Of a stretch of DNA of 35,399 nucleotides, positions 4,865 through 28,366 are shown piece by piece (the stretch's first letter is position 1; each line of letters begins with the position of its first letter). The stretch lies in contig SLFT01000284.1 in assembly GCA_007124105.1 (NCBI GenBank), positions 1 through 35,399 on the forward strand, written 5' to 3'. The position numbers were made by a program, and so were the translations under genes. A model generated the notes under the pieces. It searched no databases, was not told the DNA's origin, and saw nothing but the letters and a program-made list of their open reading frames with translations. Origin of the DNA: Candidatus Hydrogenedentota bacterium (lineage in GTDB: Bacteria > Hydrogenedentota > Hydrogenedentia > Hydrogenedentales > CAITNO01).

Positions 4865-5869
4865 TTATTCGGCCGGTTTAAACCAGATATTGCGAAATCG
4901 AACGCGATCGCCGTGGTCTTGGAGCAGCAACGGCCCGACTGGCGCTTCTTCATTGCTGACGCCGCCTGGCGTATGCGATTCCAGTTCCACATCGTCATGG
5001 ATCAGGATGCCATTATGATACGCGTGGATACGCGCGTTTTCGATTTTTGCGCCGTTCTCGTCAAATACCGGGGCCGTGAAATCAATTTCGAAGGTCTGCC
5101 ATTGCAGCGGCGGCAGCGTGGCATCGGCTATGGGCGCGGCCAGTGAATACACGCCGCCGCAGAAACCGTCCTCAGGCTCTACACCGAAGCTGTCCAACAC
5201 CTGCACTTCGTATCTGCCCAGCACATACACGCCGCTGTTGCCTCGGCTCTGGCCGCGCGCGTTGGGCATGAAGGGTGTCTGGAATTCTACATGGTAGCGC
5301 CCGTTGCCAAACTCTTCAATGGTCTTAAGGTTGCTGCCGCACACTTCCATGGAACCGTCGCCGCGCTGACACCATTGCAGCGGCCAACGTTCCCACTGGG
5401 CGATGTTTGTGCCGTCGTAAAGGGAGACGGCGCCCTCGGGCGGCGCTTTGCCAAGGTTTGGCGGCACGATAAATACGCGTTTCAGTTCAAAAGGGGCCTC
5501 CACGCCGCCCCGTCGGCGTTGCTCGCGCAACATGCCGGTCATGGTCTCATTTTCAATGCGCGCCGTGAAATCAAACAAACCACCCAGGGCGCCCAGGTCC
5601 AACGTATCTTCAAATTCCGAGACGCCTTCCTCGCCTCTGCCGCGCGTTTCCAGGCGCAGCGCCTCTTCTTCACTTTCGCCAATAAACAACACCATGCGAT
5701 GCGCCGTATCGCTTAGTGCGACCACCTGTGCGCGAATATAATGGTTCGCCCAGGCGTCGCCCGTAAACGCGCCGTGGTAGTTGCCCATGATCATGTCGTC
5801 GTCTTCTACCGCTCCGGCATACATTGCCACGCATAGAGCAATCAGCGTCACGAAAGAAATTCGTTTCAT
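4865..5869 (-). CDS. Secreted DUF1080 (3-keto-disaccharide hydrolase-like) domain protein.
   Basis: The signal peptide is MKRISFVTLIALCVAMYAGA, with GGAG upstream of ATG 5869. The C-terminal part (SGVYVLGRYEVQVLDS...LLLQDHGDRVRFRNIWFKP) is typical of the DUF1080 lectin-like fold. The track ORF start at 5938 was rejected. Confidence 0.75.
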   Translation of the reverse strand: MKRISFVTLIALCVAMYAGAVEDDDMIMGNYHGAFTGDAWANHYIRAQVVALSDTAHRMVLFIGESEEEALRLETRGRGEEGVSEFEDTLDLGALGGLFDFTARIENETMTGMLREQRRRGGVEAPFELKRVFIVPPNLGKAPPEGAVSLYDGTNIAQWERWPLQWCQRGDGSMEVCGSNLKTIEEFGNGRYHVEFQTPFMPNARGQSRGNSGVYVLGRYEVQVLDSFGVEPEDGFCGGVYSLAAPIADATLPPLQWQTFEIDFTAPVFDENGAKIENARIHAYHNGILIHDDVELESHTPGGVSNEEAPVGPLLLQDHGDRVRFRNIWFKPAE

Positions 5870-6051
5870 ATCAAGCGTCTCCTTTATTTTGTTACAGTTT
5901 ACAGGGTGAATAAAAGCCTGGGCGTTTGCAAAGAACACGCCGTCCGCTACACAGTATCACGATGCCTTCTTTAACCACAAGCGCGTTTGCGCCGATTGAA
6001 TCATACCACGACATCAGCGAACACGTGAGGGTTGCTGGCCGCAGTGTCGTT

Positions 6052-8133
6052 TTAATTCGGCACTTCAAACTCCGATGGGGCGTCGTAACCCAGGTCGCGC
6101 ATGAGCGTATGGAAATCGTCGTCATTGTACGCCGGATCGAAGTTCACCGCTTCTTCATGCGCCTTCAATGCGGCAAGCCGTTGCGCGCGCAGTTCCCGTT
6201 CGTCAGGATTCTTCGCCGCTATATAGACGCCGACACAGTCAATGCGGCCTCTGATGTGAACGCCCGCGGCAGTGGATTCCCACGCCACGTCATACACGCC
6301 GTCGGCGTCCACGCGAAACACGTCTTCAGGCGATTGCAGCCACTGCGGCAACGGGTATTCGGCCTCGATATCGCGGGGTCCGTCAAAAACAAACACGCGT
6401 TTGTCGTGGTCGGGTTTATAGCTGGTGTCCATTGCGAAAAGGATGGCGGCATCCGGCGCGCTGATCACGTTCAACTCGAGGTCGGGACGCTGTGCGCCCA
6501 TGACACGGGCGTGGTGGGTGGCGAAGCCGCTAAGATACAAGTCCTCGAGCAGCCGTATCTCGCGGCCTATGCGCGTGGTAACGTCTATGCCGTCGCGATA
6601 CATCAATGTGGAGTTGGATTGCAGGGAATACCAGTACAGACTGATGATGCCGTTGGCGAGTCCCTGGTACGCTTGCAGCAGAATTTCGTCGGGGGTCGGA
6701 CTGCGCCGCAGACGCGTGAACTGGTCCTGCCAGCCTTCATGCACATTCTGCGACCACAAGGCTATGGGAAGGGGTTCGCTGAGTTCGCGAAGGCTGCGGG
6801 TCATCACGCCGATGCCCTCGAGGGGCGCGCCCCAGAATACTGTACGATCCCAGCAGTCATACAAGCGCCAGTTATCCATGGCGGGCGCGCTCACGCGATA
6901 GGCGTCGTAATGGGGAAAGTCAACGATGCCCGCCCAATAACGCCAGCCCTTTTCGTCAGACAAGGTCAAGGTGGTAGGGTACCGCGCGGCGTCGTAGTGC
7001 TTCAAAATGTTGTAAACTTCCATTGGCGGCATGTTCACATGCTGTGGCTCGCCCAGCCTGTCCACGCCATGAATACGCGCGACCCACTCGTCGGCGTTGT
7101 ACGTGTCAATGTCCTCGAAATAGGCTTTCTGACGCATGGGATATCGCGTATACAGCCCGTCGGGCCCGGTATCGTCCGTATATCCGGCGATATGATCGCC
7201 CCAGAAGCAGTTCACATGCATGCGCTTGAGCATTTTCAGGAAACTTTCCCGGGTCACGGGCACAACGCCTTTGGGCGTTGCAATGGCCATCCACCCGGAA
7301 CTGATGTCGAAGCGGTCGGCCTTGAAACGCATCCGCGCCCACCGGCTGTGACGCGCGCCGTCCGCTGTCTCGAAGACCACTTCCACCAGGCCGTGGGTCA
7401 GCGGCAACGGTCCCGTTTTGGCCATGACAATCATAGTTGCGCCGGGCTTGACTGTGCCTGTTTCGGGTCGGGTCTCGATCGTGGCCTGTTGGCGGCTGCC
7501 GCTACGCGTCTCGGGATATACCGCCACCTCTCGCACGGTCGCCGGGACATCCAGGTCGTTCGAGAGGTGGATAACCAAACGTTCGGGGATGATGCCGTCA
7601 GCGTCCGCCGCAAACCCGGTAATGCTGCGAATCCGCAACGGGTCCACTGCTATGGGCAGCGTCACGGTTTCCGTGGTATCAGTAAGCAGGTCTGTAATTT
7701 CCAGGCTGACCTCTGTACCCACGCCCCACGCCGCCGTTCTGGCGTTAAAGGTAAACACGGACAGCGCGCCCGGCGTCAGTGTGAATGGAGCGTCGGCATT
7801 GCCCAGGTTGTCCGGCAACTCGTACCAGGCCCATTCATCTGAGGCAAGCAATGCGGCGGCGTCTTCACCGTTGAACCGCAACTGCGGCTGCATTGCCGCG
7901 CCGTCATCGCCTCGGTGACGAACCACCAGCCGCACCAACGCGCCCAGTTCGGGATCAGGCGGCTGGGAATACTTAAACTCGTCAGAAAACTGGTGCGGCG
8001 TAACAATCACATCCACGATGTCCAACGGCAGGGTATCAAGCCGTATTGTTGTCGCCCATGCGCTTGGATTTCCGAACATTACAAAAGCGATGGCAGCGGC
8101 TGCTACCAGTCGAATCACAAAAGCAGAACTCAT
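6052..8133 (-). CDS. Secreted protein of unknown family (694 aa), possibly carbohydrate-active.
   Basis: ATG 8133 is preceded by GGAG at 8-nt spacing. The signal peptide is MSSAFVIRLVAAAAIAFVMFGNPSAWA. The ORF is long, uninterrupted and has coding-like composition. I recognise no family motif. Confidence 0.8.
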   Translation of the reverse strand: MSSAFVIRLVAAAAIAFVMFGNPSAWATTIRLDTLPLDIVDVIVTPHQFSDEFKYSQPPDPELGALVRLVVRHRGDDGAAMQPQLRFNGEDAAALLASDEWAWYELPDNLGNADAPFTLTPGALSVFTFNARTAAWGVGTEVSLEITDLLTDTTETVTLPIAVDPLRIRSITGFAADADGIIPERLVIHLSNDLDVPATVREVAVYPETRSGSRQQATIETRPETGTVKPGATMIVMAKTGPLPLTHGLVEVVFETADGARHSRWARMRFKADRFDISSGWMAIATPKGVVPVTRESFLKMLKRMHVNCFWGDHIAGYTDDTGPDGLYTRYPMRQKAYFEDIDTYNADEWVARIHGVDRLGEPQHVNMPPMEVYNILKHYDAARYPTTLTLSDEKGWRYWAGIVDFPHYDAYRVSAPAMDNWRLYDCWDRTVFWGAPLEGIGVMTRSLRELSEPLPIALWSQNVHEGWQDQFTRLRRSPTPDEILLQAYQGLANGIISLYWYSLQSNSTLMYRDGIDVTTRIGREIRLLEDLYLSGFATHHARVMGAQRPDLELNVISAPDAAILFAMDTSYKPDHDKRVFVFDGPRDIEAEYPLPQWLQSPEDVFRVDADGVYDVAWESTAAGVHIRGRIDCVGVYIAAKNPDERELRAQRLAALKAHEEAVNFDPAYNDDDFHTLMRDLGYDAPSEFEVPN

Positions 8134-8401
8134 TTCTTTGGCTCCATATTGCGGCGCGAAGGGCCTCTCCATCTCGAAATATATTGGCGACAATTATGAA
8201 GTAAAGACGTCGGCATATACAACCCCCGCCGTCTTACGACGATACTGGATGAAAGATGCGGCACTAACGCAGTATTGCAGGCTGATTGTCTCTTTCGCAA
8301 TGCCTGTGTTACCCTATGTTTGCAATAAGCGCTGTTATGTTTTTTATATGATCCAGGTAAACAGCAAAGCGTTCCGGCAGACAATCAGAAGGACGAGTAT
8401 T

Positions 8402-17344: not shown

Positions 17345-17421
17345 TTATCGAAACTGTTCTCGGCGCTGCGTATCCGGCTGTAATTCCCCCACGTGTCCCC
17401 CATCCTCCCGGAGGAAAAAAT

Positions 17422-17496
17422 TGGAGGCGGCACCCGGATTCGAACCGGGGAATAAAGGCTTTGCAGGCCTCTGCCTTACCACTTGGCTATGCCGCC
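17422..17496 (-). tRNA. tRNA-Cys (anticodon GCA), with encoded CCA.
   Basis: The reverse complement is GGCGGCATAGCCAAGTGGTAAGGCAGAGGCCTGCAAAGCCTTTATTCCCCGGTTCGAATCCGGGTGCCGCCTCCA. It folds as a cloverleaf: acceptor stem GGCGGCA/TGCCGCC, anticodon stem GAGGC/GCCTT with loop CTGCAAA, T-arm CCCGG-TTCGAAT-CCGGG, and discriminator U73 as expected for Cys. Confidence 0.93.
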
Positions 17497-17509
17497 TCTC
17501 GTGGGAGGC

Positions 17510-17539
17510 ATTGTATGTTTCCAGGGCAATAAAAGTCAA
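17510..17539 (-). promoter_or_regulatory. Putative dedicated promoter of tRNA-Cys.
   Basis: The minus strand reads TTGACT (17539..17534), an 18-nt spacer, then TACAAT (17515..17510). The -10 element ends 13 nt before the mature tRNA 5' end. Confidence 0.5.
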
Positions 17540-17560
17540 ATTGGGCATCAAGCGCCGGGC

Positions 17561-18640
17561 TTATGCGTTCAAAATCGGCTGAAGCATATCCCGGTTATCG
17601 TATATCCATCTGGCAAGGTCCTCGATGATGACTGCGGCGCTTTTTTCGGGTTGCCAATCACATGCTTCCGTCACACGCGCATTGTCGGTAATGTACAAGG
17701 GGATATCACCCTGTCTGTTTTCAGTATCCGCGCCGATGGGAATGACCGTGTTCGTTGCCTGGCAACAAAGTTCCGTGAGTTCTACCAGGGAAACGCTGTT
17801 TTCAGCACCGCCGCCCACATTGAAAACGCTGCCGCGCAGTTCGGCCATGGCAGCGGTCTGACGCAATACAAGCGCGAGCAGGTCATCCACATGCAACATG
17901 TCGCGTACCTGCTTACCCGTGCCTTGATATCCAATGTACGTCAGCGCGCCGCCGTAAACATGCCGCGCCGTCCACAGTGCGGCGATGCCCTGGTCCACGC
18001 GTCCCATCTGCCAGGGACCGGCAATGACGCCGCAGCGATTCACCACAATATCCAAATCGTACATGTCCACGTATTCAGCGATAAGCGTTTCTGCGGCATA
18101 TTTGGTGGCGCCATAGAGCGAGCGCGCGCCGTCCAAGGGGAAGTCCTCGGCAATGCCGGCCCTGGAGATGCCGGGGAGAGACTGTGTCGGCGCAATTTCA
18201 AATCGGCCTGGCGCCTCCTCGAGCGCGATCGAACGCAGTTTCTCAAGGGGATAAACACGGCTTGTGGACAAGAATATCATGGCCGCGTTGTTGCGACGCG
18301 CCAGTTCCAGACAATGAACAGCACCAACAAGGTTGCTGTCTATAACATAACGCGGCGACCCGCCATAGCCCGCGAGTACGGATGGTTCCGCGCTGCATTC
18401 GATGATAAGGTCGAGTCTATCGAGAACAGGCAAGTCCTCGGGCATACGCACATCGCCATGGACAAATTCAACGCCCCCGCGACGCAGACGTCCCAAGTTG
18501 AGGCCGCTGCCGCGTCGTTTGAGGTTGTCCAACGCAATAACACGGGTTTCGGGGCATGTTTCTTTGAGCCCCAAGGCCAGGCGCGCGCCGATAAATCCGG
18601 CGCCGCCGGTTACCAATACAGTATTCAGGGATGTAGCCAT
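17561..18640 (-). CDS. NAD-dependent nucleotide-sugar epimerase/dehydratase (SDR family).
   Basis: The Rossmann motif is VLVTGGAGFIGARL. The catalytic YxxxK is in YGATKYAAE. Length is 359 aa. Confidence 0.88.
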   Translation of the reverse strand: MATSLNTVLVTGGAGFIGARLALGLKETCPETRVIALDNLKRRGSGLNLGRLRRGGVEFVHGDVRMPEDLPVLDRLDLIIECSAEPSVLAGYGGSPRYVIDSNLVGAVHCLELARRNNAAMIFLSTSRVYPLEKLRSIALEEAPGRFEIAPTQSLPGISRAGIAEDFPLDGARSLYGATKYAAETLIAEYVDMYDLDIVVNRCGVIAGPWQMGRVDQGIAALWTARHVYGGALTYIGYQGTGKQVRDMLHVDDLLALVLRQTAAMAELRGSVFNVGGGAENSVSLVELTELCCQATNTVIPIGADTENRQGDIPLYITDNARVTEACDWQPEKSAAVIIEDLARWIYDNRDMLQPILNA

Positions 18641-18708
18641 TGGTGTGCCCTATGTATTACGAACTACGCGCCCGACGCTGTCCGACAATGTCTTACAATC
18701 CGCCGATA

Positions 18709-18737
18709 ATCTTAAATTTCAGGTAACTCTCTACCAA
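18709..18737 (-). promoter_or_regulatory. Possible promoter of the epimerase gene.
   Basis: The minus strand reads TTGGTA (18737..18732), a 17-nt spacer, then TAAGAT (18714..18709). Confidence 0.3.
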
Positions 18738-18754
18738 TAGATATCGAAATTGGA

Positions 18755-18788
18755 CTGTGGGTTCCGCTTCGCTTCACCCACCCTACAG
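18755..18788. repeat. REP-like imperfect palindromic element.
   Basis: The plus strand reads CTGTGGGTTCCGCTTCGCTTCACCCACCCTACAG. GTGGGT pairs with ACCCAC and the outer CTGT pairs with ACAG. It lies in the intergenic region between the YceI-like gene and the epimerase gene. Only one copy is present in this window. Confidence 0.5.
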
Positions 18789-18879
18789 AATCGAAAGTTT
18801 GATTTAAGACGACATCATGCGAGACGTTTACAATTTCAGAGTAGTCCAACGTGTACCAGGGATCGGAATATTTCTGTGT

Positions 18880-19725
18880 CTAGTTTTCCGATTCCGCGAG
18901 AATCGCGAATGACACCACAACCTCAGGAAGTATTTGCGCGCCTTCGTACATATCATAGCCAATATCCCAAAGCTGGCGGTCTATGGTAAATTCCGCCTGG
19001 GCGAAGACATCATCACCGCGCCGCTCAATAGTAGCGGGAAACTGTATGCCCTTGGTCTCGCCGCGCAATGTGAAGTTGCCTGTTACCAGATAACGCCCCT
19101 CTTCGTCGGCAGGCTCGATTTTTGTGCTGGCAAAACGCGCGGTCGAATGTTCTTCCACGTCAAAGAATGCGTTGCCGCGTAATACGCCGGTGAGAATGCT
19201 GTTCTGGGAGAAGATGGTGTTCATATCCACAATGACCTCGACATAGCTTTCGTTGGGGTCATCGTTAACCACAACCAGCGTACCGTTAAAGTTGGCGAAT
19301 CCGCCTTCCATCGAAATACGCTGACCAAGAATGGTTTTGTAGCCCACCCACATGATTTCAGATTCCATGTTGGGGGAAATGACGTATTCCTCGGTCACTT
19401 CCACAGGGGCTGGTTCAGGAACTACGTCCGGCGCTTCCTCGGGATCGCCGGCGGCCTCCACGGCGGCCGCGTCCACAGGCGGTTCAGGGCGAACCGGCCT
19501 GCGTTCTTCCTGCACTTCCACCACAGTAGCGCCTTCAGCGCGGTCAATGGCGGTGTTGCTGCCGCCGATGGTGTAACCCACAAAACCGCCGCCCACCACG
19601 CCAATGATGCCGCCTGCGATAAAAGCGATGATAATTTTGATATTGTTCACGTCTGATTCGTCTCCATGTTCATGCGCCGCCGCGCGGGCGGTCGCCTTCG
19701 TTTGTCTCGTTTGGGCATGGCCCAC
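18880..19725 (-). CDS. Membrane-anchored YceI-like domain protein.
   Basis: It has a TM helix (IIIAFIAGGIIGVVGGGFVGY), a Pro/Glu/Ala-rich linker, then a YceI-like domain (FFDVEEHSTARFASTKIEP...YLVTGNFTLRGETKGIQFPA). An alternative start is GTG 19650, which is preceded by GGAGA. Confidence 0.75.
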   Translation of the reverse strand: MGHAQTRQTKATARAAAHEHGDESDVNNIKIIIAFIAGGIIGVVGGGFVGYTIGGSNTAIDRAEGATVVEVQEERRPVRPEPPVDAAAVEAAGDPEEAPDVVPEPAPVEVTEEYVISPNMESEIMWVGYKTILGQRISMEGGFANFNGTLVVVNDDPNESYVEVIVDMNTIFSQNSILTGVLRGNAFFDVEEHSTARFASTKIEPADEEGRYLVTGNFTLRGETKGIQFPATIERRGDDVFAQAEFTIDRQLWDIGYDMYEGAQILPEVVVSFAILAESEN

Positions 19726-19852
19726 AAGGTAGTTGTTACTGCACGACTGCTCTTTATGCTATCCAGCGAAACATCTTCTATCGCAACATTGGGCCAACAG
19801 GGCGCCACTATACCAACGATTAAGAGCGGGGGTTGTTCACCCGCGCGTCGCG

Positions 19853-21358
19853 CTATGTTGCCACGACACCATCGGCCGCATCCACTTCTTCATCCCACGT
19901 GTAGTAATCGTAGAAACTGGGTACGGGGAAATCGAACGTGTAGAGTTCCGGATCAATTTCGACAACCCGTCCTTCGTCGCGCGACTGCACAGCGGCAATG
20001 GCTGTGAGCGCCGTGGTGTACCCCACCATCTCGTTGTTAAGGGGTACGCCACCGTTTTTGATGCAATCGGCAAAGGCGCGGAACTGGTGTACATCCGGCG
20101 TCTCGAGGGCAACATCGGCCAGCAATTCGATGCCCTCACGCATTGCGTCAGTGCTCACCTGCAGCGTGGCGCCGCTGGTTGTGCGTTCGGCAAGCTCTTC
20201 CGCTGTCAGCTCCTCGTCCACTTCCTGAACAAGTATATCTTCCCCGAACAAGTAACATTGCTGCTCGGTCAGTTGAAGCGAACCTTTGTCGCCCTGGATA
20301 AGTTCCGAGGCGCCGCGCTTGGCGTTGGCAAGGATGCTCGAGTATACAAAGCGCACGGAATAGCCCCGGTTGATAAGATTGAGACGCTGATACTGACTGC
20401 GCGCGTCTATGGGCATGAACCCCGGATCGCCGGGATTGACATCGTATTCATAAGAGATTAGGATGTTGTCGTCTGTGGTGCGTCCGTCGCGCCAATAGTC
20501 AAGCCCGGCAAAGGTATGTACGCGGGCCGGCATACCTTTCATGAACCAGTTGGCGATGTCGGTCTGGTGGGTGGCCAGCTCGGTAAACAAGCCGTCCGAA
20601 CTCTCCTGGTAAATACGCCAGTTTAAGTGTTTTTCCAAATCGTCAATATACTTCTTCTCTTCTTCGTTTATCTCGTATTCCGCGGGCATCACACGACGCC
20701 AGAAGTGGTTACGATGCCACTGCGCGGTAATATGCGTAATGCGCCCGATCATGCCGTCGGCGTGGGCAAGGCCCATAGCCATATTGTATTTCGGGTTGTA
20801 GCGGCGCTGATGGCCCACCTGGACCCACCGGTCCAGTTCATGGCATTTCGCCAACATGCTGCGGCCTTCGTCCACCGAACGCACAAGCGTCTTTTCGCAG
20901 AAGACAAACTTGCCGGCGTTCAGGCAATCCATGGTGATCGCATAGTGCGTATCCAGGGGCGTGGAAATAACAACGGCATCGAGCTCTTCCTTCTCGAGCA
21001 TCTCTTTGTAGTCATAATAGGCATTGGGTTTGTATGCCGCCTGCGCCAGTTGACGCTCTTCGTCGGTCAATCGTCTACCGACTTCCAGTTCGATGCCCGC
21101 GTTCGACAGTTGCGCGTAGCGCACCGCCTCGCGCTGATGCGGCAGAAATACGTCGCACACGGCTGTAATAACAATATCGGGCGTACCTGTCATGCCATCG
21201 CGAATATGGAAGGTTCCCTGGCCGCCGGTGCCAATACACCCCACGCGCACTTTTTCGTTCTGCGCGTACGAGAAGGGCGAATATCCCGATGCAATGGCGA
21301 AGCCCGCCGTGGCGCCCGCCGCTTTCATGAAATTACGTCTGCTGATTCCTGTGCTCAT
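19853..21358 (-). CDS. Tat-exported Gfo/Idh/MocA-family oxidoreductase (501 aa).
   Basis: The twin-arginine signal is MSTGISRRNFMKAAGATAGFAIASG. The Rossmann motif is VRVGCIGTGGQG. The EKT/EKP-type segment is FVFCEKTL. The C-terminal half carries the insertion EELAERTTSGATLQVS. Confidence 0.88.
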   Translation of the reverse strand: MSTGISRRNFMKAAGATAGFAIASGYSPFSYAQNEKVRVGCIGTGGQGTFHIRDGMTGTPDIVITAVCDVFLPHQREAVRYAQLSNAGIELEVGRRLTDEERQLAQAAYKPNAYYDYKEMLEKEELDAVVISTPLDTHYAITMDCLNAGKFVFCEKTLVRSVDEGRSMLAKCHELDRWVQVGHQRRYNPKYNMAMGLAHADGMIGRITHITAQWHRNHFWRRVMPAEYEINEEEKKYIDDLEKHLNWRIYQESSDGLFTELATHQTDIANWFMKGMPARVHTFAGLDYWRDGRTTDDNILISYEYDVNPGDPGFMPIDARSQYQRLNLINRGYSVRFVYSSILANAKRGASELIQGDKGSLQLTEQQCYLFGEDILVQEVDEELTAEELAERTTSGATLQVSTDAMREGIELLADVALETPDVHQFRAFADCIKNGGVPLNNEMVGYTTALTAIAAVQSRDEGRVVEIDPELYTFDFPVPSFYDYYTWDEEVDAADGVVAT

Positions 21359-21360
21359 GA

Positions 21361-22410
21361 CTACTCCTTGCTCCTGCTGTCCTGGTTCATGTTAATAAAA
21401 ATTGTCTCGGGTGCGTTCTCTGTCTCCACAACAAGTATGGCGCGCACTTCGGGATAAGACTTACAATAGTCTCGTGTGGCTTCCAACCCCATCACATAAA
21501 AAGCTGTGCTCAACACATCGCTCTCAAGCCCATTGGGCGTAATAGCGGTAGCGCTGAGTATCCCGGTCGTGGGCATGCCCGTCCGGGGATCCACAATATG
21601 ACCATATCGTTGACCGTCTATCTCAATGTAACGCTCTGTGCGCGATGAGGTGGACAAGGATTCATTGCGAATATCCACTGTCGCGATATACGCATCCTCC
21701 CCATTATTATACGGGGAACGGATGTCCACAGTCCAACCGGACTTGCCCGGCGGCGCGCCCACAGCGACAATAGTGCTCGTACCAACGTTAAGCCGCGCAG
21801 ATTCTACGCCGTGGTCGCGCAGGATGGCGGCCGCGCGGTCAAGGGCCAGCCCCTTGGCAATACCGCCAAAATCAATATGCATGCCGGGCCGCTTAAAAAT
21901 CACCGTCCGCGACGCGGGCTCAAAGGCTACATGCTCGATGCCAACGCGCGCCGTAGCTTCCCGCAGTTCATCTGGACTTGGATGGTTGCCGCTTCCGACA
22001 TAAAAGCCCCATAGTTTCATAATCGGCCCAATGGTCACATCGAAAGCGCCGCCGGTGCGCTCGGAATAGCGCCGCGCGGCAAGAAGCAGTTCCATAATAT
22101 CCGAGGGAACAGTTACGGGCCTTTCTGCCGCCTCACGATTCATCAGGGTGGTAAAGCTGTCCTGGCGGAACCGACTGATTCGCGCTTCCAATGCGTCCAT
22201 GGCGACAAACGCTTCGCGCGCGGCCTCGCGCAATACTTCTGATTCGGCGTCAGGCGCGCCAAACATAAGAATTTCGATTTCCGTGGCCATGGCGACATGG
22301 CGCATCACCACCGGCCCTTGCGCAAGCGCCGCACCAGCGCCGAAGCACAAGGTGATAAACGTAACGCACACCATCCATGCGATGCGCTTCTTGTATATTG
22401 TGTTAAACAC
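21361..22410 (-). CDS. apbE: FAD:protein FMN transferase (ApbE family), exported.
   Basis: GTG start 22410 has AGGA 9 nt upstream. The signal peptide is MFNTIYKKRIAWMVCVTFITLCFGAGAALAQG. ApbE-typical segments are DVTIGPIMKLWGF, DFGGIAKGLALDRAA and GHIVDPRTGMP. The stop lies 2 nt before the oxidoreductase ATG. Confidence 0.88.
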   Translation of the reverse strand: MFNTIYKKRIAWMVCVTFITLCFGAGAALAQGPVVMRHVAMATEIEILMFGAPDAESEVLREAAREAFVAMDALEARISRFRQDSFTTLMNREAAERPVTVPSDIMELLLAARRYSERTGGAFDVTIGPIMKLWGFYVGSGNHPSPDELREATARVGIEHVAFEPASRTVIFKRPGMHIDFGGIAKGLALDRAAAILRDHGVESARLNVGTSTIVAVGAPPGKSGWTVDIRSPYNNGEDAYIATVDIRNESLSTSSRTERYIEIDGQRYGHIVDPRTGMPTTGILSATAITPNGLESDVLSTAFYVMGLEATRDYCKSYPEVRAILVVETENAPETIFINMNQDSRSKE

Positions 22411-22571
22411 TACTGGAAATCCTGAAAAGCGTTCTCAATCAAATAACGGTGGCGTCAGTGAAAAAGATGTCTCACTGTTGACGCGGGTGATACAATTGTC
22501 TGGAAACAGGGCCGCAATGGCGCCGCGTCGTTTCCTGATGCTTTTGACCTGACGAAGGAGGGTTTCGTTTC

Positions 22572-23264
22572 GTGAACCGTTCATCACTCGCCGGTATGAT
22601 AGACCATACGCTGCTGCGCGCTTTCGCCACGGAGGTTGAAATACGTCACCTATGTGAAAAGGCGCGATTGTACGGCTTTCGCGCCGTATCAATCAACCCG
22701 GTGTGGGTGTCCTTCTGCGCGAAATTATTGCGCGACAGCAAGGTGGGCATAGACGCCTGCGTCGCCTTTCCGCTGGGCGCCGCCACGGCACGCTTGAAGA
22801 TCGAAGAAGCGCGGGACGCTGTCCAGAACGGCGCCACCGAGATAGATATGGTCATTAACATCGGCGCGTTGAAATCAGGGTACGCTCAGTATGTGGAAAA
22901 GGAAATCAGCGCGGTAGTAAAAGCGGTAAAAGACTGTCCAGTCAAGGTTATTCTTGAAGCCAGCTACCTGAGCGACGAAGAAAAAACGGCGGTGTGCAAG
23001 ATGAGCGTACGCGCGGGCGCCGCCTATGTAAAGACATCCACGGGCTTCGGCAGCAGCGGCGCACGTGTACAAGATGTAAAGTTGATGAAAAGCGTGGTGG
23101 GCGATGCGCTGGGCATTAAGGCTGCCGGCGGTATACGCAGTTACGCGAGAGCCGTACAGTTCATCGAGGCAGGCGCAACCCGAATCGGCACCAGCGCCGG
23201 CGTCGCCATTCTCAAGGACGCGTCGGACGATGAAGAAGAGAAACAGGAGCACGCGCATAATTAG
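22572..23264 (+). CDS. deoC: Deoxyribose-phosphate aldolase.
   Basis: Motifs are IDHTLLRAFAT, VAFPLGA, EIDMVINIGALKSG and the Schiff-base Lys context AYVKTSTGF, plus IKAAGGIR. GTG start 22572 has GGAGG 11 nt upstream. Confidence 0.9.
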   Translation: MNRSSLAGMIDHTLLRAFATEVEIRHLCEKARLYGFRAVSINPVWVSFCAKLLRDSKVGIDACVAFPLGAATARLKIEEARDAVQNGATEIDMVINIGALKSGYAQYVEKEISAVVKAVKDCPVKVILEASYLSDEEKTAVCKMSVRAGAAYVKTSTGFGSSGARVQDVKLMKSVVGDALGIKAAGGIRSYARAVQFIEAGATRIGTSAGVAILKDASDDEEEKQEHAHN

Positions 23265-23498: not shown

Positions 23499-24953
23499 TC
23501 ACCACAATGAAACATAGCGTTTGGGAAATGGCTGTTCCACAGCTTCGGCTTGTAGTGTGAACGGCGGCGGCGGTTGATAACGGCGCAACCACCAACAACG
23601 TGAAAAAAACGACGGCGTTTCCGGCTCAGGCGCGGCAAGCCCTTGTACTGATACGACAACCTTTCGGCGCGTGTACGTTTCAACAGCGATATCTACCGGT
23701 GGGATAACGGAAATGGGGAGCAACGATACAACCGGCTGCGGCGTACTGAATGGCGTTTGATATTTTACAGACTCTGAAAGCATCATGGGGGCGGTGCGAT
23801 AGTATTGGATATCGGGTACAAGCGCCAGGGCTTCTCCGGGATTCTCGCGTCTTGCCTCTGCAACAGCCTTCTGTACCCGAAGCGCCTCCTGGCCTGCATG
23901 ACGCCAGTGCAGGTTCACCCAAATCTGGCAACACATTGCCGCTATACATAGCAGCGTAGTCACGCGTACGACAGTGATGCGCCATTTACTGTTCTCCATA
24001 ACGGCCTGAAAGAATCCGGCGACAGCAATGGCCAGCAACGCCGCGGGCAACATTAACTGTCCCCCGCCGGCAAGTGTGACCGCATCCACGGTGAAACCGC
24101 CTTGACAAAGGCGAAACGCCGCCGCGCCAAGCAGCCCGAAAGTAAAGGCGGGTTTGTTTACCTTGCGAATCAGCCAGGCGCCCAGCAAAACCACAACGGC
24201 GCTAAGCCCATAGCCCGCCAACGGCAACTGCTGGAAGAATAATACCGTATCGGGCAACATGCCGATGGGATAAACCACAAAAAAAAGAGGCGCGAACATA
24301 CGCACTGGATGCAACGCCCCCGACATCGCCCACTGTCCGCTCATGAATAATGCAATTGTTCCAAAAATCGCAAGCGGCAGCCAACGACGCGTCTTTTCCT
24401 TGTAAACGCTGTATTCGAGGACAATAACCACGACGAACAGCATGATGTTGATCGGGCCGGTCAGTATTGCCGCAAGGTATACCAGCGCCGGCAACTGCAC
24501 CGCCCCGACCTTTGCCGACTGGCGGCAACGCACATAAACGTACAAGGTAAGCAGCGCCATGAATCCCGGCCACAGGTCGCGTACACCACTGATAGCAAGT
24601 ACAGCCTCCGTTTTCACCGGATTCGCCATGAATAATACCGCCGCCACCGAACCAAGCCACCAGGGGCCGCGCGTAAGATGACGCGTCAACACAAGGATCA
24701 GCGCCATGCACCCATACAGCAGCACGAGGTTTAGCAGCAGATACATCCATCCATAGCCGCCAAACAGGCGCGTTAACGAGGTAAAGAATAGAACGGCGTC
24801 CGGACGCGCCAGCGCGGCATAATCGCGGCCCAGCGGGGGAATGGCCAGGAACGCCGCATATACCATTGCAAGGTATAGCGCATCGGCCACAAACAACGGC
24901 GTTGCGCGCGAATGACGCACTGCTGGCGCGGTATGGTTTTCGGTTTCAATCAA
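23499..24953 (-). CDS. Polytopic inner-membrane protein of unknown family, possibly a GT-C-type glycosyltransferase or polymerase.
   Basis: It is 484 aa, with at least 11 hydrophobic helices followed by a soluble tail of about 130 aa. TTG start 24953 has GGAG 10 nt upstream. It is the last gene of the GT4-GT4-oxidoreductase string. Confidence 0.6.
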   Translation of the reverse strand: MIETENHTAPAVRHSRATPLFVADALYLAMVYAAFLAIPPLGRDYAALARPDAVLFFTSLTRLFGGYGWMYLLLNLVLLYGCMALILVLTRHLTRGPWWLGSVAAVLFMANPVKTEAVLAISGVRDLWPGFMALLTLYVYVRCRQSAKVGAVQLPALVYLAAILTGPINIMLFVVVIVLEYSVYKEKTRRWLPLAIFGTIALFMSGQWAMSGALHPVRMFAPLFFVVYPIGMLPDTVLFFQQLPLAGYGLSAVVVLLGAWLIRKVNKPAFTFGLLGAAAFRLCQGGFTVDAVTLAGGGQLMLPAALLAIAVAGFFQAVMENSKWRITVVRVTTLLCIAAMCCQIWVNLHWRHAGQEALRVQKAVAEARRENPGEALALVPDIQYYRTAPMMLSESVKYQTPFSTPQPVVSLLPISVIPPVDIAVETYTRRKVVVSVQGLAAPEPETPSFFSRCWWLRRYQPPPPFTLQAEAVEQPFPKRYVSLW

Positions 24954-25027: not shown

Positions 25028-26014
25028 TCACGGAACGCGTACAGGCTTGCCGCCCGCCGCTGCGGATTTCCACGCGGCCTCGGTAACCTCGATAACGCGC
25101 AACCCACATTCCGGCGGCGTCTCAGGTTCGGCTTTCCCGAGCATCACCTCGATGAAATTGCTGTCCGGATTCTTGTTGTATTTCGGCAGCGTTACTTTCA
25201 CCGGTTTGCCCACGGCGTTCTGCTGCGAGAGGCCAAGTCCCTGGCGCAGGTAGAGCGCGCCCTTGCCGCCAACAATGGTATGGTCTTCGTACCAACCCGG
25301 CGCGTTGCCGATAATGGACAGGCTGCCAAGCGCGCCGTTCTCAAACACCATCGCCAGTGTGGCGTTAATGTCCACGGGTACATCGAAATTGACCTGGAAT
25401 GCCGACACCGTCTTTACTTTCATCCCTGTCATCCACATAAGGATATCCACCAGGTGACTGCCGGAGTCGTTCAGCTGGCCGCCGCCGGAAAGTTCCATGG
25501 TCTGGCGCCAGGTGTTCCGTGTTGCGCGCAGCCATTCCTGGCTGAGCACAGCCTGCACAAACTCGATTTCACCCAACGCGCCCTTCTGTATCTGCGCGCG
25601 CATATACCGAAACGGCGGCTCATAATGGCGCTGATAAGAAATCATAAGCGTACGATTGACCTGCTTTGCCTTCTTGATAAGCGCCTTAGCGTGACGGATG
25701 GTGCATACCATCGGCTTCTCTGTGAGTACATGCAGTCCCTTGCCTAACGATACATTGATTTGTTCATAATGCACCGTGTGGGGACTGAGAATAACCACGC
25801 CGTCAAGCGCTTCTTTCTTCAGCATGTCCTTGTAATCGTTATACACCGGCAATTTGTCCGCGCCCGGACAATGCTGATAGAACCGTTTCAGCGACGCATC
25901 GCTCGGATCGGTAAGCGCGGCAACCACCGCCTTTTTTGTTTCATGAATACGGTGATAGTGACCAACGGCTATGCCGCCGGCGCCAATAAACCCAATGCGA
26001 AGTTTTCCCGCCAT
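25028..26014 (-). CDS. Cytoplasmic Gfo/Idh/MocA-family oxidoreductase, nucleotide-sugar dehydrogenase-like.
   Basis: ATG 26014 is preceded by AGGAGA. It begins MAGKLRIGFIGAGGIAVGHY (Rossmann motif) and has the EKP motif in HVLTEKPM. There is no signal peptide. The track's N-terminal extension was rejected. Confidence 0.85.
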   Translation of the reverse strand: MAGKLRIGFIGAGGIAVGHYHRIHETKKAVVAALTDPSDASLKRFYQHCPGADKLPVYNDYKDMLKKEALDGVVILSPHTVHYEQINVSLGKGLHVLTEKPMVCTIRHAKALIKKAKQVNRTLMISYQRHYEPPFRYMRAQIQKGALGEIEFVQAVLSQEWLRATRNTWRQTMELSGGGQLNDSGSHLVDILMWMTGMKVKTVSAFQVNFDVPVDINATLAMVFENGALGSLSIIGNAPGWYEDHTIVGGKGALYLRQGLGLSQQNAVGKPVKVTLPKYNKNPDSNFIEVMLGKAEPETPPECGLRVIEVTEAAWKSAAAGGKPVRVP

Positions 26015-26120
26015 GACAAGGTTTCTCCTTGTGTTGTTTGGAAATTTCCAATAACCACGACCACAACATGCGCATGGTACACCCTGGGAGAAACAGATGC
26101 AAAAAAGCATCCCAGCGGCG

Positions 26121-27203
26121 CTACGCCGTCAGTTCCCTGTACACCTCCAATGTCTGTTGTACCATGCGTTCAACGGAGAATTTTTCTCGGGCCAGTTTAC
26201 TGCCCGCTTCGGCCATGCATTGTGCGGCCTGGCGGTCGGTGAGCCCGGCGACGATAGCATCGGCCAGCGCTTCGGGATCGCGGACCGGCGTCAAGTATCC
26301 CGTAACCCCGGGGATTACCATCTCTCGCGCGCCGCCGGCTTCGGCGGCCACTACTGGTACGCCCGCAGCGAGCGCCTCCAGTATCGAAGTGCCCAGCCCT
26401 TCGCTCCAGCTCGAGGACACATAGATATCGGCGGCGCGGATAATGGCGGGGGCATCAGCGCGGTAACCAAGAAACGCGACGCAATCATTGAGTCCAAGCG
26501 CGTTGCGTCTCGCTTCGAGCGCGCTGCGCAGCGGCCCTTCGCCCGCGATACAGACCCGCAGGTTCGGAAACACCTTGCGCACCCTTGCCGCGGCATCAAG
26601 CAGGTTCGCATGGTCCTTGTGATCCACCAGTGCGCCTGCGCTCGCCAACAATGGCGCGTCTTCGGGCACATCAAGGGAGGCGCGAGACGCCGCCGGCATA
26701 AGCGCGCGCTCGAAGTCCACCGCGCTATGAACCACGCGCGTTTGCGGGGGATGCAGTCCGTAGTCGGCGAGAGTCTCCTGAACCTTCTCTGAGACGCATA
26801 AGATACGGTCGGGGCGGCTATATTTCCAGCGGTTAAGCCGATGCTGTCTGGGCGGGAAATTGACGCGGCGAGAGACCACGATGCGGCTTGTCATACCGAA
26901 GCAGGATGCCACAACGGCTATGCCGTGGGCGTGGCTGGCGTGGGCGTGAACAATGTCCACATGGCAATGTTGTGTGATTCGGGCCAGCCGCCAGGCGGAA
27001 TAAAGATCAAGTTCACCGCGCAACGGCAGCGCAAACCGATGTATATCATCACGATCGGGATGCATGGCCACAAACTCCTCGCCGGCGCGACCGATTACAA
27101 TGTTTGACACACCATGTTCGGCAAGCCCGCGCACAAGCCAGGACGCTTGCTGTTCCCCACCCCTGAGCCCTTGTTGCTCGTCCAGATGGACTGCGGTTAT
27201 CAT
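26121..27203 (-). CDS. Family 4 glycosyltransferase.
   Basis: The GT-B/GT4 C-terminal signature is SSSWSEGLGTSILEALAAGVPVVAAEAGGAREMV (E-x7-E). Its start overlaps the upstream stop as ATGA at 27200..27203. Confidence 0.88.
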   Translation of the reverse strand: MITAVHLDEQQGLRGGEQQASWLVRGLAEHGVSNIVIGRAGEEFVAMHPDRDDIHRFALPLRGELDLYSAWRLARITQHCHVDIVHAHASHAHGIAVVASCFGMTSRIVVSRRVNFPPRQHRLNRWKYSRPDRILCVSEKVQETLADYGLHPPQTRVVHSAVDFERALMPAASRASLDVPEDAPLLASAGALVDHKDHANLLDAAARVRKVFPNLRVCIAGEGPLRSALEARRNALGLNDCVAFLGYRADAPAIIRAADIYVSSSWSEGLGTSILEALAAGVPVVAAEAGGAREMVIPGVTGYLTPVRDPEALADAIVAGLTDRQAAQCMAEAGSKLAREKFSVERMVQQTLEVYRELTA

Positions 27204-28366
27204 GAACGCTGCCCCTCTCCAAATGCCTTTTTATGCTCCGCAACCACCTGCCTGTATACATCAAGGGTGCGCTGCACGAACACTTCACTGCTGAATTCCG
27301 CTTGAACCCGTTGGCATCCCGCCCGGCCCATTGTGGCCCGTAGCTCGGGATCGTCCATCAGCTTGCTGAGCGCTTCCGCAAGCGGCTCCACCGTGCCGGC
27401 GGGCACGATAAACCCTTCCACACCATCGCTGATAATCTCGGCAAGGCCGCCGTAATCAGAGGCGATGACCGGGATGCTCGCTGCCATCTGCTCTTTCATG
27501 CTGAATGACGACGTGTCGCAGTCAACGGAAGGTTGCGCGCATATATCGAAGGCCTGAACACAATAGTCCATATCGTTGCGAAATCCGAGGAAACGCACCA
27601 TGGACGCGATGCCCAATTGCGTGGCCATCATCCGCAAAGACTTTTCAAGTACACCCTGACCAAACACGAGAATGCGCAGCTGTGGATACTGTTCCTTGAG
27701 CATCGCGGCCGCTCGGAACAAAAATTCGTGTCCTTTCGCTGGCACAAGACGCGCCACAATGCCGCACACGATGTCCGAATCGGCGCAGTCAAATTCAGCG
27801 CGGGCCTGCTTGCGGCGTTCCGGATCGAAAGCGTACAGGGCAGCGTCAACGCCGTTGTGGATGGTGCGAAGGCGGTCAGCGTTAAATGCGGGGTGTTGCG
27901 CAAGCGTGCGCCGCACGACATCGCATACCACAATTTGAAAATCGGTCAGCCGCCTGTTTAAGTAACGATTGGGCAGGTTATCGTTCACCACGTAGGTGTT
28001 GTGACGCGTACGCACCAATGGCGCAGGCCGATTCATCCAATAGTTGGTCACGGCAAAGGCCCAGTGGTCCTGGGAACCGTTTACATGTACAACATCCGGG
28101 GTGTATTCGCGCATGAATCGGGTCGCCTCGGCTAAGTCGGTGCGCCACGCGGCAGGTCGTACGCCGCCCTTAAAACTGAACCAGTCATAAGGTTCGGCGC
28201 CTACGGCTCTGGCATGGTCCACAAGAACACTGCCCGGACGACATCCAATGGCGACACGGTGACCAAGACGCGTCAGGCCCTCGGCCAGCGTGGACACATA
28301 ACGCACTTGTCCCCCGCCCTGTAAATGAGGATCGCTAATGAGAATATGAAGAGGTTTATCAGACAT
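27200..28366 (-). CDS. Family 4 glycosyltransferase.
   Basis: The N-terminus is HILISDPHLQGGGQVRYVSTLAEGL. The C-terminal part is SSFSMKEQMAASIPVIASDYGGLAEII. This is GT4-like architecture, 388 aa. Confidence 0.82.
   Translation of the reverse strand: MSDKPLHILISDPHLQGGGQVRYVSTLAEGLTRLGHRVAIGCRPGSVLVDHARAVGAEPYDWFSFKGGVRPAAWRTDLAEATRFMREYTPDVVHVNGSQDHWAFAVTNYWMNRPAPLVRTRHNTYVVNDNLPNRYLNRRLTDFQIVVCDVVRRTLAQHPAFNADRLRTIHNGVDAALYAFDPERRKQARAEFDCADSDIVCGIVARLVPAKGHEFLFRAAAMLKEQYPQLRILVFGQGVLEKSLRMMATQLGIASMVRFLGFRNDMDYCVQAFDICAQPSVDCDTSSFSMKEQMAASIPVIASDYGGLAEIISDGVEGFIVPAGTVEPLAEALSKLMDDPELRATMGRAGCQRVQAEFSSEVFVQRTLDVYRQVVAEHKKAFGEGQRS

Follow-up and report, generated by a model that had tools for sequence, protein, structure and literature searches.

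The window analysed here is the whole 35,399 bp stretch of contig SLFT01000284.1 from the Candidatus Hydrogenedentota assembly GCA_007124105.1. It contains a minus-strand operon in which apbE, the gene for a predicted flavin mononucleotide (FMN) transferase, is followed by a gene for a dehydrogenase of the Gfo/Idh/MocA (GFO) family with a twin-arginine translocation (Tat) signal. We propose from comparative sequence analysis that the dehydrogenase is a client of the adjacent ApbE and is probably flavinylated at Thr398. The features concerned are as follows.

21361..22410, minus strand: apbE, 349 amino acids with a GTG start, identified as an open reading frame (ORF) with a Pfam ApbE match
21598..21600, minus strand: codon for ApbE His271, equivalent to Vibrio cholerae ApbE His257, within the aligned Y-x-H-I-x-D-P and invariant in 21 GFO-linked orthologues
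21364..21369, minus strand: AAGGAG Shine-Dalgarno sequence at the 3' end of apbE, read from the sequence
19853..21358, minus strand: Tat-signal GFO dehydrogenase and proposed ApbE client, 501 amino acids with an ATG start, assigned by Pfam, AlphaFold and Foldseek
21263..21358, minus strand: twin-arginine signal peptide of the dehydrogenase (residues 1-32, S-R-R-N-F-M-K, probable cleavage after S-Y-A), by TIGR01409
21215..21241, minus strand: Rossmann motif G-C-I-G-T-G-G-Q-G (residues 40-48), with invariant glycines
20116..20242, minus strand: variable helix-loop-helix excursion that holds the motif (residues ~373-414), from AlphaFold confidence and orthologue insertions
20165..20176, minus strand: S395-G396-A397-T398, the proposed flavinylation site, from conservation and BLASTP alignment onto VDGVSGAT of a distant relative (P0163)
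18880..19725, minus strand: third gene, a membrane-anchored YceI-like protein of 281 amino acids (Pfam YceI, 5e-27)

The junction of the first two genes is compact. The apbE stop codon (TAG) is separated by 2 nt from the dehydrogenase ATG, and the AAGGAG that serves the dehydrogenase is formed by the final apbE codons. The end of apbE thus supplies the ribosome-binding site of the dehydrogenase, and the two genes are translationally coupled. The first-pass annotation had described this pair, with the GGIAKG motif in ApbE, the 2 nt gap, a twin-arginine signal followed by the Rossmann motif in the dehydrogenase, and T-S-G-A-T codons at 20165..20179 of which the last encodes residue 398; all of these are borne out on re-reading of the ORFs and junction and by the analyses below. 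Its remark that the window encodes no usual ApbE client also agrees with a Pfam scan of 27 large window ORFs, in none of which is there an FMN_bind, NqrB/RnfD, NosR, DUF2271 or DUF3570 domain. Promoter and terminator predictions across 17400..23000 are no more numerous than in shuffled sequence and do not define the limits of the operon.

The 501 amino acid protein has the GFO_IDH_MocA N-terminal (5.6e-19) and C-terminal (1.2e-12) domains (PF01408, 69.4 bits; PF02894, 48.5 bits; PF22725, 39.2 bits), and these and the Tat signal are its only Pfam matches; the described client families FMN_bind, NqrB/RnfD, DUF2271, DUF3570, Flavodoxin_4 and FMN_red are not matched. Its AlphaFold model (mean predicted local distance difference test score, pLDDT, 88.9) is similar to GFO-fold enzymes at about 1e-20, with a Foldseek probability of 1.00 to many GFO structures; the glucuronide 3-dehydrogenase 8tdi is the top match, and WlbA, levoglucosan dehydrogenase and glucose-fructose oxidoreductase (GFOR) are also among the best. 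A profile search of the PDB finds no entry of the same family (the best is the generic 3e18, 9e-36), and neither this protein nor its Bacteroidota relatives described below reach the cut-off of any NCBIfam model. The twin-arginine signal passes TIGR01409 (18.1 bits, cut-off 16.7) and falls just under the Pfam TAT_signal cut-off (20.5 bits, cut-off 22.7), and its residues R7, R8, F10 and K12 reach at least 90% conservation across 77 homologues. In this set G43, G45, G48, D69 (the acidic residue after strand 2), H183 and the catalytic E155 are invariant, and the likewise catalytic K156 and H264 are at least 90% conserved.

The ApbE protein matches PF02424 over almost the entire profile (5.5e-73, 246.2 bits, cut-off 25.6, profile positions 1-265 of 266). 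Its N-terminus, MFNTIYKKRIAWMVCVTFITLCFGAGAALA followed by QG, looks like a Sec signal when read by eye: a KKR n-region precedes a hydrophobic core, and A-L-A stands before the Q. It is not an orthologue of the E. coli type, since its score against the equivalog model NF007774 (138.9 bits) is far under the cut-off of 498. Solved FMN transferases (entries 7esa, 4xdt and 2o18; the proteins include Listeria FmnB, which is 7esa, Treponema pallidum Ftp, and E. coli and Salmonella ApbE) align along its length at 1e-33 to 1e-40. Three segments, DFGGIAKG, YGHIVDPRTG (with the catalytic His) and SDVLSTA, match those of the solved transferases 7esa, 4xdt and 4ifu, and G182, K186, G187, H271, P275, G278 and S301 are invariant across the 21 GFO-linked ApbE orthologues; a catalytic role has been described for the V. 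cholerae counterpart of H271 (PMC12052999). Judged on its residues, the window ApbE has the full transferase catalytic set and is predicted to transfer FMN.

We note that some related loci encode an unusual form of ApbE. In four to five of them (L007:3578-5992, L028:371-2782, L019:2-2680, L017:2-2071 and probably L104:2545-4995) an Nramp-type transporter (PF01566, 1e-19 to 1e-24) and a C-terminal ApbE form one ORF of 690-893 amino acids from stop to stop. The Nramp part may supply metal to ApbE, or it may have a connection with the traffic of flavin or iron; the main text of the Meheust et al. 2021 survey does not name Nramp.

Alternatively, the GFO-linked ApbE could act in the periplasm as T. 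pallidum Ftp does, as a flavin adenine dinucleotide (FAD) pyrophosphatase or in flavin trafficking, or it could transfer some other group; the dehydrogenase would then have no covalent FMN. FAD pyrophosphatases do exist within the ApbE family (PMC4767422), and the Nramp-type fusions hint at a trafficking or metal-linked role. The position that is Asn in the T. pallidum pyrophosphatase (N55) and Tyr in transferases (Y60 in E. coli) is Phe in the window ApbE. Deka and colleagues are said to have found in 2015 that Asn or Tyr at this position of Ftp switches between hydrolase and transferase-type behaviour, and the aromatic residue in the window protein argues against the hydrolase. GFO-linked ApbE keeps both the catalytic His and the metal ligands, and the canonical acceptor motif in relatives of the dehydrogenase (see below) implies transfer to a protein. 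We regard such a role as highly improbable, and FMN transfer is retained as the predicted activity.

The candidate acceptor lies in the C-terminal half of the dehydrogenase. The motif region reads EVDEELTAEELAERTTSGATLQVSTD, within ...ELAERTTSGATLQVSTD..., and Thr398 itself is encoded by 20165..20167 (minus strand) as the last codon of the T394-T398 segment. The sequence E-R-T-T-S-G-A-T contains the [ST]GA[ST] core of ApbE acceptor sites and lacks the classical Asp. The motif is expected 0.04 times in a protein of this composition, and a single SGAT match is by itself weak evidence. The first-pass annotation had found no other such tetrapeptide in the exported proteins of the window. Among stop-to-stop ORFs of at least 150 amino acids it occurs once in the dehydrogenase and in no other real gene; a second copy is present in 25748..26239, a shadow ORF that overlaps a real gene of the opposite strand.

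Conservation of the site was examined in Hydrogenedentota orthologues. Two genome scans were pooled to give 84-85 non-redundant loci in which ORFs were called, and 94 family members were aligned. The nearest relatives all come from Candidatus Hydrogenedentota metagenome-assembled genomes, with up to 88% identity, and the set spans 43-88%. Many of the loci of this type (L007, L010, L011, L014, L020 and others) are titled 'uncultured Nitrospirales/Nitrospiraceae bacterium', labels that are probably wrong. The residues at the four motif positions in the 94 members are as follows.

Motif position 1: S in 57, T in 11, A in 9
Motif position 2: G in 81
Motif position 3: G in 32, K in 16, A in 12, and others
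Motif position 4, aligned with Thr398: T in 45 and S in 45 (Ser/Thr in 90 of the 94)

The pattern kept by the orthologues is thus [ST]-G-x-[ST], and in the segment from 374 to 421 only G396 (0.82) and a Ser/Thr at 398 (0.91) are strongly conserved, the remainder being poorly conserved and variable in length. If SGAT is taken strictly, as the first-pass annotation had put it, conservation does not hold (7 of 94 members); what is conserved is the Gly and the terminal Ser/Thr. Just upstream of the motif the orthologues differ in Ala/Glu/Lys/Pro-rich insertions, whose length ranges from 0 to about 40 residues. In the AlphaFold model the excursion has a pLDDT of 66-73, compared with more than 90 around it, and consists of a helix (386-395), a loop (396-403) and a second helix (404-408). 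Thr398 is modelled on a lower-confidence loop between two short helices and not in the well-packed core. The model fits an exposed, mobile motif loop, and the helix-loop-helix excursion could possibly act as a flexible tether. The motif-loop peptides searched alone have no Pfam match even at E<=10, and no FMN_bind-like similarity.

More distant relatives provide the context in which the window site can be understood. A search of 1.84 billion representative proteins with the family profile returns 613 clusters at E<=1e-30, of which about fifteen are of the 500 amino acid Hydrogenedentota type. The others are Tat-signal GFO proteins of about 400-470 amino acids that have family-specific motifs such as QWHRNxxWRR in common, and many of those of about 400 amino acids carry a canonical D-x-x-[ST]-G-A-[ST] in the loop aligned with the window SGAT (VDGVSGATI, VDGMSGATV, VDAISGASI, VDSVTGASI, IDGRSGATL and FDFTSGATQ, for example, and also VVTSGATH). 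Scanning genomes with an alignment built from the shorter proteins recovers at least 590 relatives, and the best 80 loci, all from Bacteroidota or Acidobacteriota (L150-L229) and including cultured Maribacter, Flagellimonas, Chitinophaga, Dyadobacter and Olleya, were analysed. In these 80 the loop reads [VLI]-D-G-V-[S63/T11/A6]-G-A-T, in which D, G, V, G, A and T are invariant (80/80). When the window protein is compared by pairwise BLASTP with the relative P0163 (29% identity, 2e-57), its SGAT falls on the SGAT of VDGVSGAT, with ELA-ERTTSGATLQVSTDA aligned over ELGLVDGVSGATITKSSDG; the site is shared by relatives from about 160 other genomes.

Because the homologous loop of the distant relatives has the full motif, invariant in these 80, the window SGAT is predicted to be a relaxed descendant of a canonical flavinylation site. 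Two caveats had been attached to it in the first-pass annotation. That a four-residue match can arise by chance is no longer a concern given the canonical loop in 80/80 relatives. The Asp is truly absent from the window protein, as had been pointed out, and this is explained by the canonical homologous site in the relatives. Mutational work has shown that the Thr of the acceptor motif is essential, that changing Asp to Ala has a minor effect, and that Gly-to-Ala or Ala-to-Val substitutions halve flavinylation (PMC12052999); a relaxed motif, especially one served by a dedicated ApbE, is therefore plausible.

The L150-L229 loci have characteristic surroundings of their own. The canonical-motif dehydrogenase mostly lies beside a second GFO paralogue, and the motif is absent from 60/60 of these paralogues. 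A tandem DUF1080 3-keto-disaccharide hydrolase flanks 53 of the 80 loci, and glucuronate isomerase, TRAP transporters, a sulfatase and a short-chain dehydrogenase/reductase are other recurrent neighbours. The neighbourhood looks like a uronide or glycoside utilisation cluster.

The association with apbE extends across the Hydrogenedentota family. Taking adjacency as a gene on the same strand, directly upstream and within 400 bp, and counting only loci with enough upstream DNA, we find apbE directly ahead of a family member in 69 of 77 loci. In several loci apbE heads a tandem row of two or three dehydrogenase paralogues. An independent association is seen in two Dyadobacter genomes, in which apbE (Pfam ApbE, ~1e-77 to 1e-80) lies directly downstream of the GFO gene. 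The adjacency recorded in the window by the first-pass annotation is thus a family-wide property, and comparative genomics supports the flavinylation it had proposed. A genome scan with a single ApbE sequence returned only five loci and is uninformative on further apbE contexts.

Adjacency could alternatively reflect co-regulation, with ApbE acting on some other protein whose gene lies elsewhere (Rnf or Nqr subunits, for example) and the Gly and Ser/Thr of the loop having a structural role or forming a substrate lid. A client search that covers the window and the operon loci leaves room for such a client or for further apbE copies in the rest of the genome; the motif is relaxed in the window clade, as noted above; and there is no apbE within ~5 kb of the dehydrogenase at L020, L078, L107, L111 and L140. 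Against a client elsewhere are the maintenance of adjacency across deep divergence, the translational coupling, and the independent Dyadobacter arrangement; no other member of the operon has a candidate motif; and the invariant canonical motif in the homologous loop of 80/80 relatives is hard to read as a lid. We consider a client elsewhere quite unlikely, and the adjacent dehydrogenase remains the preferred ApbE substrate.

Clustering of neighbouring ORFs at the Hydrogenedentota loci yields only four recurrent families: the dehydrogenase, ApbE, the YceI-like protein and a protein of about 1150 amino acids. In 37 of 84 loci the gene immediately after the dehydrogenase is the YceI-like one, and its product is anchored by a transmembrane helix or a lipobox. 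The ~1150 amino acid protein is encoded directly downstream of the dehydrogenase in 19 loci, those of the SGGT subclade. It has eight CxxCH motifs with weak cytochrome c7/c3 matches and a C-terminal cytochrome b561 membrane domain (PF01292), an unusual fusion of a multihaem cytochrome c and a dihaem cytochrome b (for example L012:2748-6668, L009:7542-10970 and L101:6544-10137). This partner places the dehydrogenase in an extracytoplasmic electron-transfer chain, and the presence of the partner in 19 loci gives indirect support to an electron exit through FMN. NADH is an obligate two-electron donor, haems take one electron each, and flavin is the usual adaptor between the two. The presence of a flavin would accordingly make chemical sense. 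In E. coli, yceI shares an operon with yceJ, which encodes a cytochrome b561 homologue, and polyisoprenoid lipids are bound by YceI proteins; operons of the YceI type and of the b561 type may thus connect to the quinone pool in two versions of the same way.

Three neighbouring gene products were also considered as ApbE clients and rejected. The YceI-like protein of the window has D-R-A-E-G-A-T, which resembles a flavinylation motif, in its linker (residues ~60-67, right after the membrane helix); comparison with 39 orthologues shows no conservation of it, and many of them are lipoproteins whose linkers are unrelated. None of the 19 octahaem cytochromes shares a conserved [ST]G[AGS][ST]. An FMN_red protein encoded nearby in eight loci has neither signal peptide nor motif.

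The scenario that best accounts for these features would begin with folding of the GFO dehydrogenase around NAD(H) in the cytoplasm, followed by its export through Tat. The Sec-exported ApbE would then use FAD in the periplasm to attach FMN through a phosphoester to Thr398 on the flexible loop of the C-terminal domain. Oxidation of a sugar or glycoside hydroxyl, most likely of the glycoside 3-dehydrogenase type, would reduce the trapped NAD+, and the tethered FMN would take the hydride from NADH and pass single electrons to a membrane-linked acceptor. In the sister operons the acceptor would be the octahaem cytochrome c fused to cytochrome b561, and in the window operon it is presumably quinone, reached via the membrane-anchored YceI-like protein. 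The covalent FMN, the hydride transfer from NADH, the substrate and the direction of electron flow are all steps that we infer. We hold the full model, in which trapped NADH gives its electrons to the tethered FMN and these are handed on to cytochromes or quinone, tentatively and rate its chance as somewhat short of even.

The glycoside 3-dehydrogenase-type reaction is a best guess, made because of the structural matches, the conserved Lys, His and NAD-type Asp, and the DUF1080 neighbours of the relatives. The window itself encodes a DUF1080 3-keto-disaccharide hydrolase (PF06439, 1e-30; 357 amino acids, 4865..5938, minus strand) 14 kb from the operon; an enzyme of this kind would be expected to act on the product of a glycoside 3-dehydrogenase.

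Electrons might instead flow in the reverse direction, such that a flavinylated enzyme would use quinol or cytochrome electrons to reduce NAD+ through FMN and then act as a respiratory or detoxifying reductase of a periplasmic keto-sugar or other carbonyl. The cytochrome b561/octahaem partner leaves the direction unfixed, and Hydrogenedentota are often reported from anoxic habitats, which we count in favour of reverse flow. The NAD+/NADH couple, at about -320 mV, is much more negative than quinol and most c-type haems, and reduction of NAD+ by either would be uphill. Known clients such as the extracytosolic fumarate and urocanate reductases do receive electrons through the flavinylated site (PMC8238504), whereas the catabolic neighbours of the relatives listed above, prominent among them the 3-keto-disaccharide hydrolase, fit sugar oxidation. 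We judge reverse flow unlikely, and sugar oxidation with electron exit through FMN is preferred.

Several observations weigh against flavinylation of the dehydrogenase and the electron path proposed for it. The strict [ST]GA[ST] is rare among the orthologues, the window clade as a whole has no classical Asp, and most members have G, K, S, E, Q or L in place of the Ala. The terminal Ser/Thr is missing from only four members (L107, L104, L025_3587 and L144); L107 has no apbE and L144 is at a contig edge, but the apbE-adjacent L104 has TGKA, and L025_3587, which belongs to an apbE-headed tandem array, has SDRG. Motif and adjacent apbE are both present in nearly all family members, and four motif-loss members are too few to judge co-variation. 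Among the Bacteroidota and Acidobacteriota loci apbE is adjacent in just 3 of 80, such that the link there is the motif alone; in Bacteroidota apbE usually lies elsewhere in the genome. Flavin on GFO-family proteins has no biochemical record, and GFO enzymes have no known flavin pocket. Other periplasmic GFO enzymes (GFOR and the NAD-dependent glycosidases) are redox-neutral and need no electron exit. The YceI-like protein is possibly a quinone- or lipid-binding partner, and this role is a guess.

The proposed system resembles described ApbE clients in that the window dehydrogenase is exported and encoded beside apbE, has a candidate Thr/Ser acceptor in a [ST]-G-A-[ST]-type loop (with the full D-x-x-[ST]-G-A-T in the wider GFO family), and belongs to a family genomically linked to membrane electron-transfer modules. 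It differs in that the carrier is an NAD-binding GFO dehydrogenase, a fold that is absent from the described client classes and not known to bind flavin, and in that the motif is in an inserted loop of the C-terminal domain and has lost its Asp and become variable at the Ala in the window clade.

Comparisons can also be drawn with other periplasmic sugar dehydrogenases. Zymomonas mobilis GFOR has the same fold as the window protein (Foldseek 1e-19), although their sequence similarity is remote (E ~1e-6, N-terminal domain only), and it is likewise Tat-exported with a nicotinamide cofactor that must be recycled on the enzyme (PMC8121099). GFOR however recycles NADPH by reducing a second sugar in a redox-neutral cycle, and neither an apbE partner nor a flavinylation motif is described for it. 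The BT2158 family (NF058561) and the P2B11 glucuronide 3-dehydrogenase (8tdi) are also Tat-signal GFO enzymes that act on glycosides and are associated with DUF1080 hydrolases, as in the window and the relatives' loci. The window protein is not a member of NF058561 (60.8 bits, cut-off 750, profile positions 79-194 only), and the Bacteroidota relatives also score below its cut-off (58-95 bits). For BT2158 a second sugar is proposed as the hydride acceptor (PMC8121099), whereas the GFO-ApbE family has a built-in candidate acceptor. The FAD-dependent glucoside 3-dehydrogenases LacABC/ThuAB (a flavoprotein with a cytochrome c) are proposed as functional analogues, in which periplasmic glycoside oxidation is connected through flavin and haem c to the respiratory chain; they differ in having an unrelated glucose-methanol-choline (GMC) fold, FAD rather than NAD and tethered FMN, and no ApbE.

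The first-pass annotation knew of no GFO protein described as an ApbE substrate, and we likewise find none in papers, NCBIfam models or solved structures. A full-text search, whose coverage excludes most subscription journals, finds no paper naming both ApbE or flavinylation and the GFO family, and GFO proteins are not named as clients in Meheust et al. 2021, Huang et al. 2024 or the 2025 ApbE review; one unrelated GFO gene is listed in supplementary file 1 of Meheust et al. 2021. That survey reports that genomes with orphan apbE genes remain and that less prevalent substrates are unidentified, and GFO clients may explain some of these orphans. For the Tat-exported GFO protein BT2158, Liu et al. 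2021 suggest that it probably reduces 'another as yet unidentified sugar' (PMC8121099), and because this acceptor is unidentified the electron sink of periplasmic Tat-exported GFO dehydrogenases is an acknowledged gap.

If the proposal is correct, a nicotinamide-dependent dehydrogenase fold becomes a new class of ApbE client, where so far there has been a handful of dedicated flavin-binding domains, and trapped NAD with tethered FMN is a new cofactor arrangement. Tat-exported GFO dehydrogenases have no periplasmic NAD pool, and covalent FMN together with the octahaem/b561 protein would be a concrete route to the respiratory chain; periplasmic glycoside or polyol oxidation would become respiratory, which would answer how these enzymes dispose of electrons. 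Hundreds of genomes from cultured Bacteroidota that degrade glycans, among them Maribacter, Flagellimonas, Chitinophaga and Dyadobacter, encode relatives with the canonical motif, and if the proposal holds, models of carbon and electron flow in polysaccharide degraders would be affected. The proteins from Hydrogenedentota, Bacteroidota and Acidobacteriota could together constitute a widespread undescribed class of Tat-exported, NAD-loaded GFO enzymes with a 'swinging-arm' FMN acceptor attached by ApbE, a prospect that we put close to even but on the lower side.

Among the other genes of the window, we note a DeoC/LacD-family aldolase (22572-23264, plus strand) that is divergent from apbE, an arrangement repeated in nine related loci (e.g. 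L001:2659-3405 and L004:1188-2069). A second, shorter GFO gene is the first of three minus-strand ORFs at 25028-26110, 26121-27203 and 27200-28366, and has no evident export signal if its start is the internal MAGKLRIGFIG. It is followed by two family 4 glycosyltransferases (GT4), and the group (25028-28366) is probably a cell-envelope sugar cluster that is unrelated to the apbE operon. Three long minus-strand ORFs, 23499-24953, 872-2251 and 6052-8193 (484, 459 and 713 amino acids), have no Pfam match, and the first of these is very hydrophobic and probably encodes a polytopic membrane protein.

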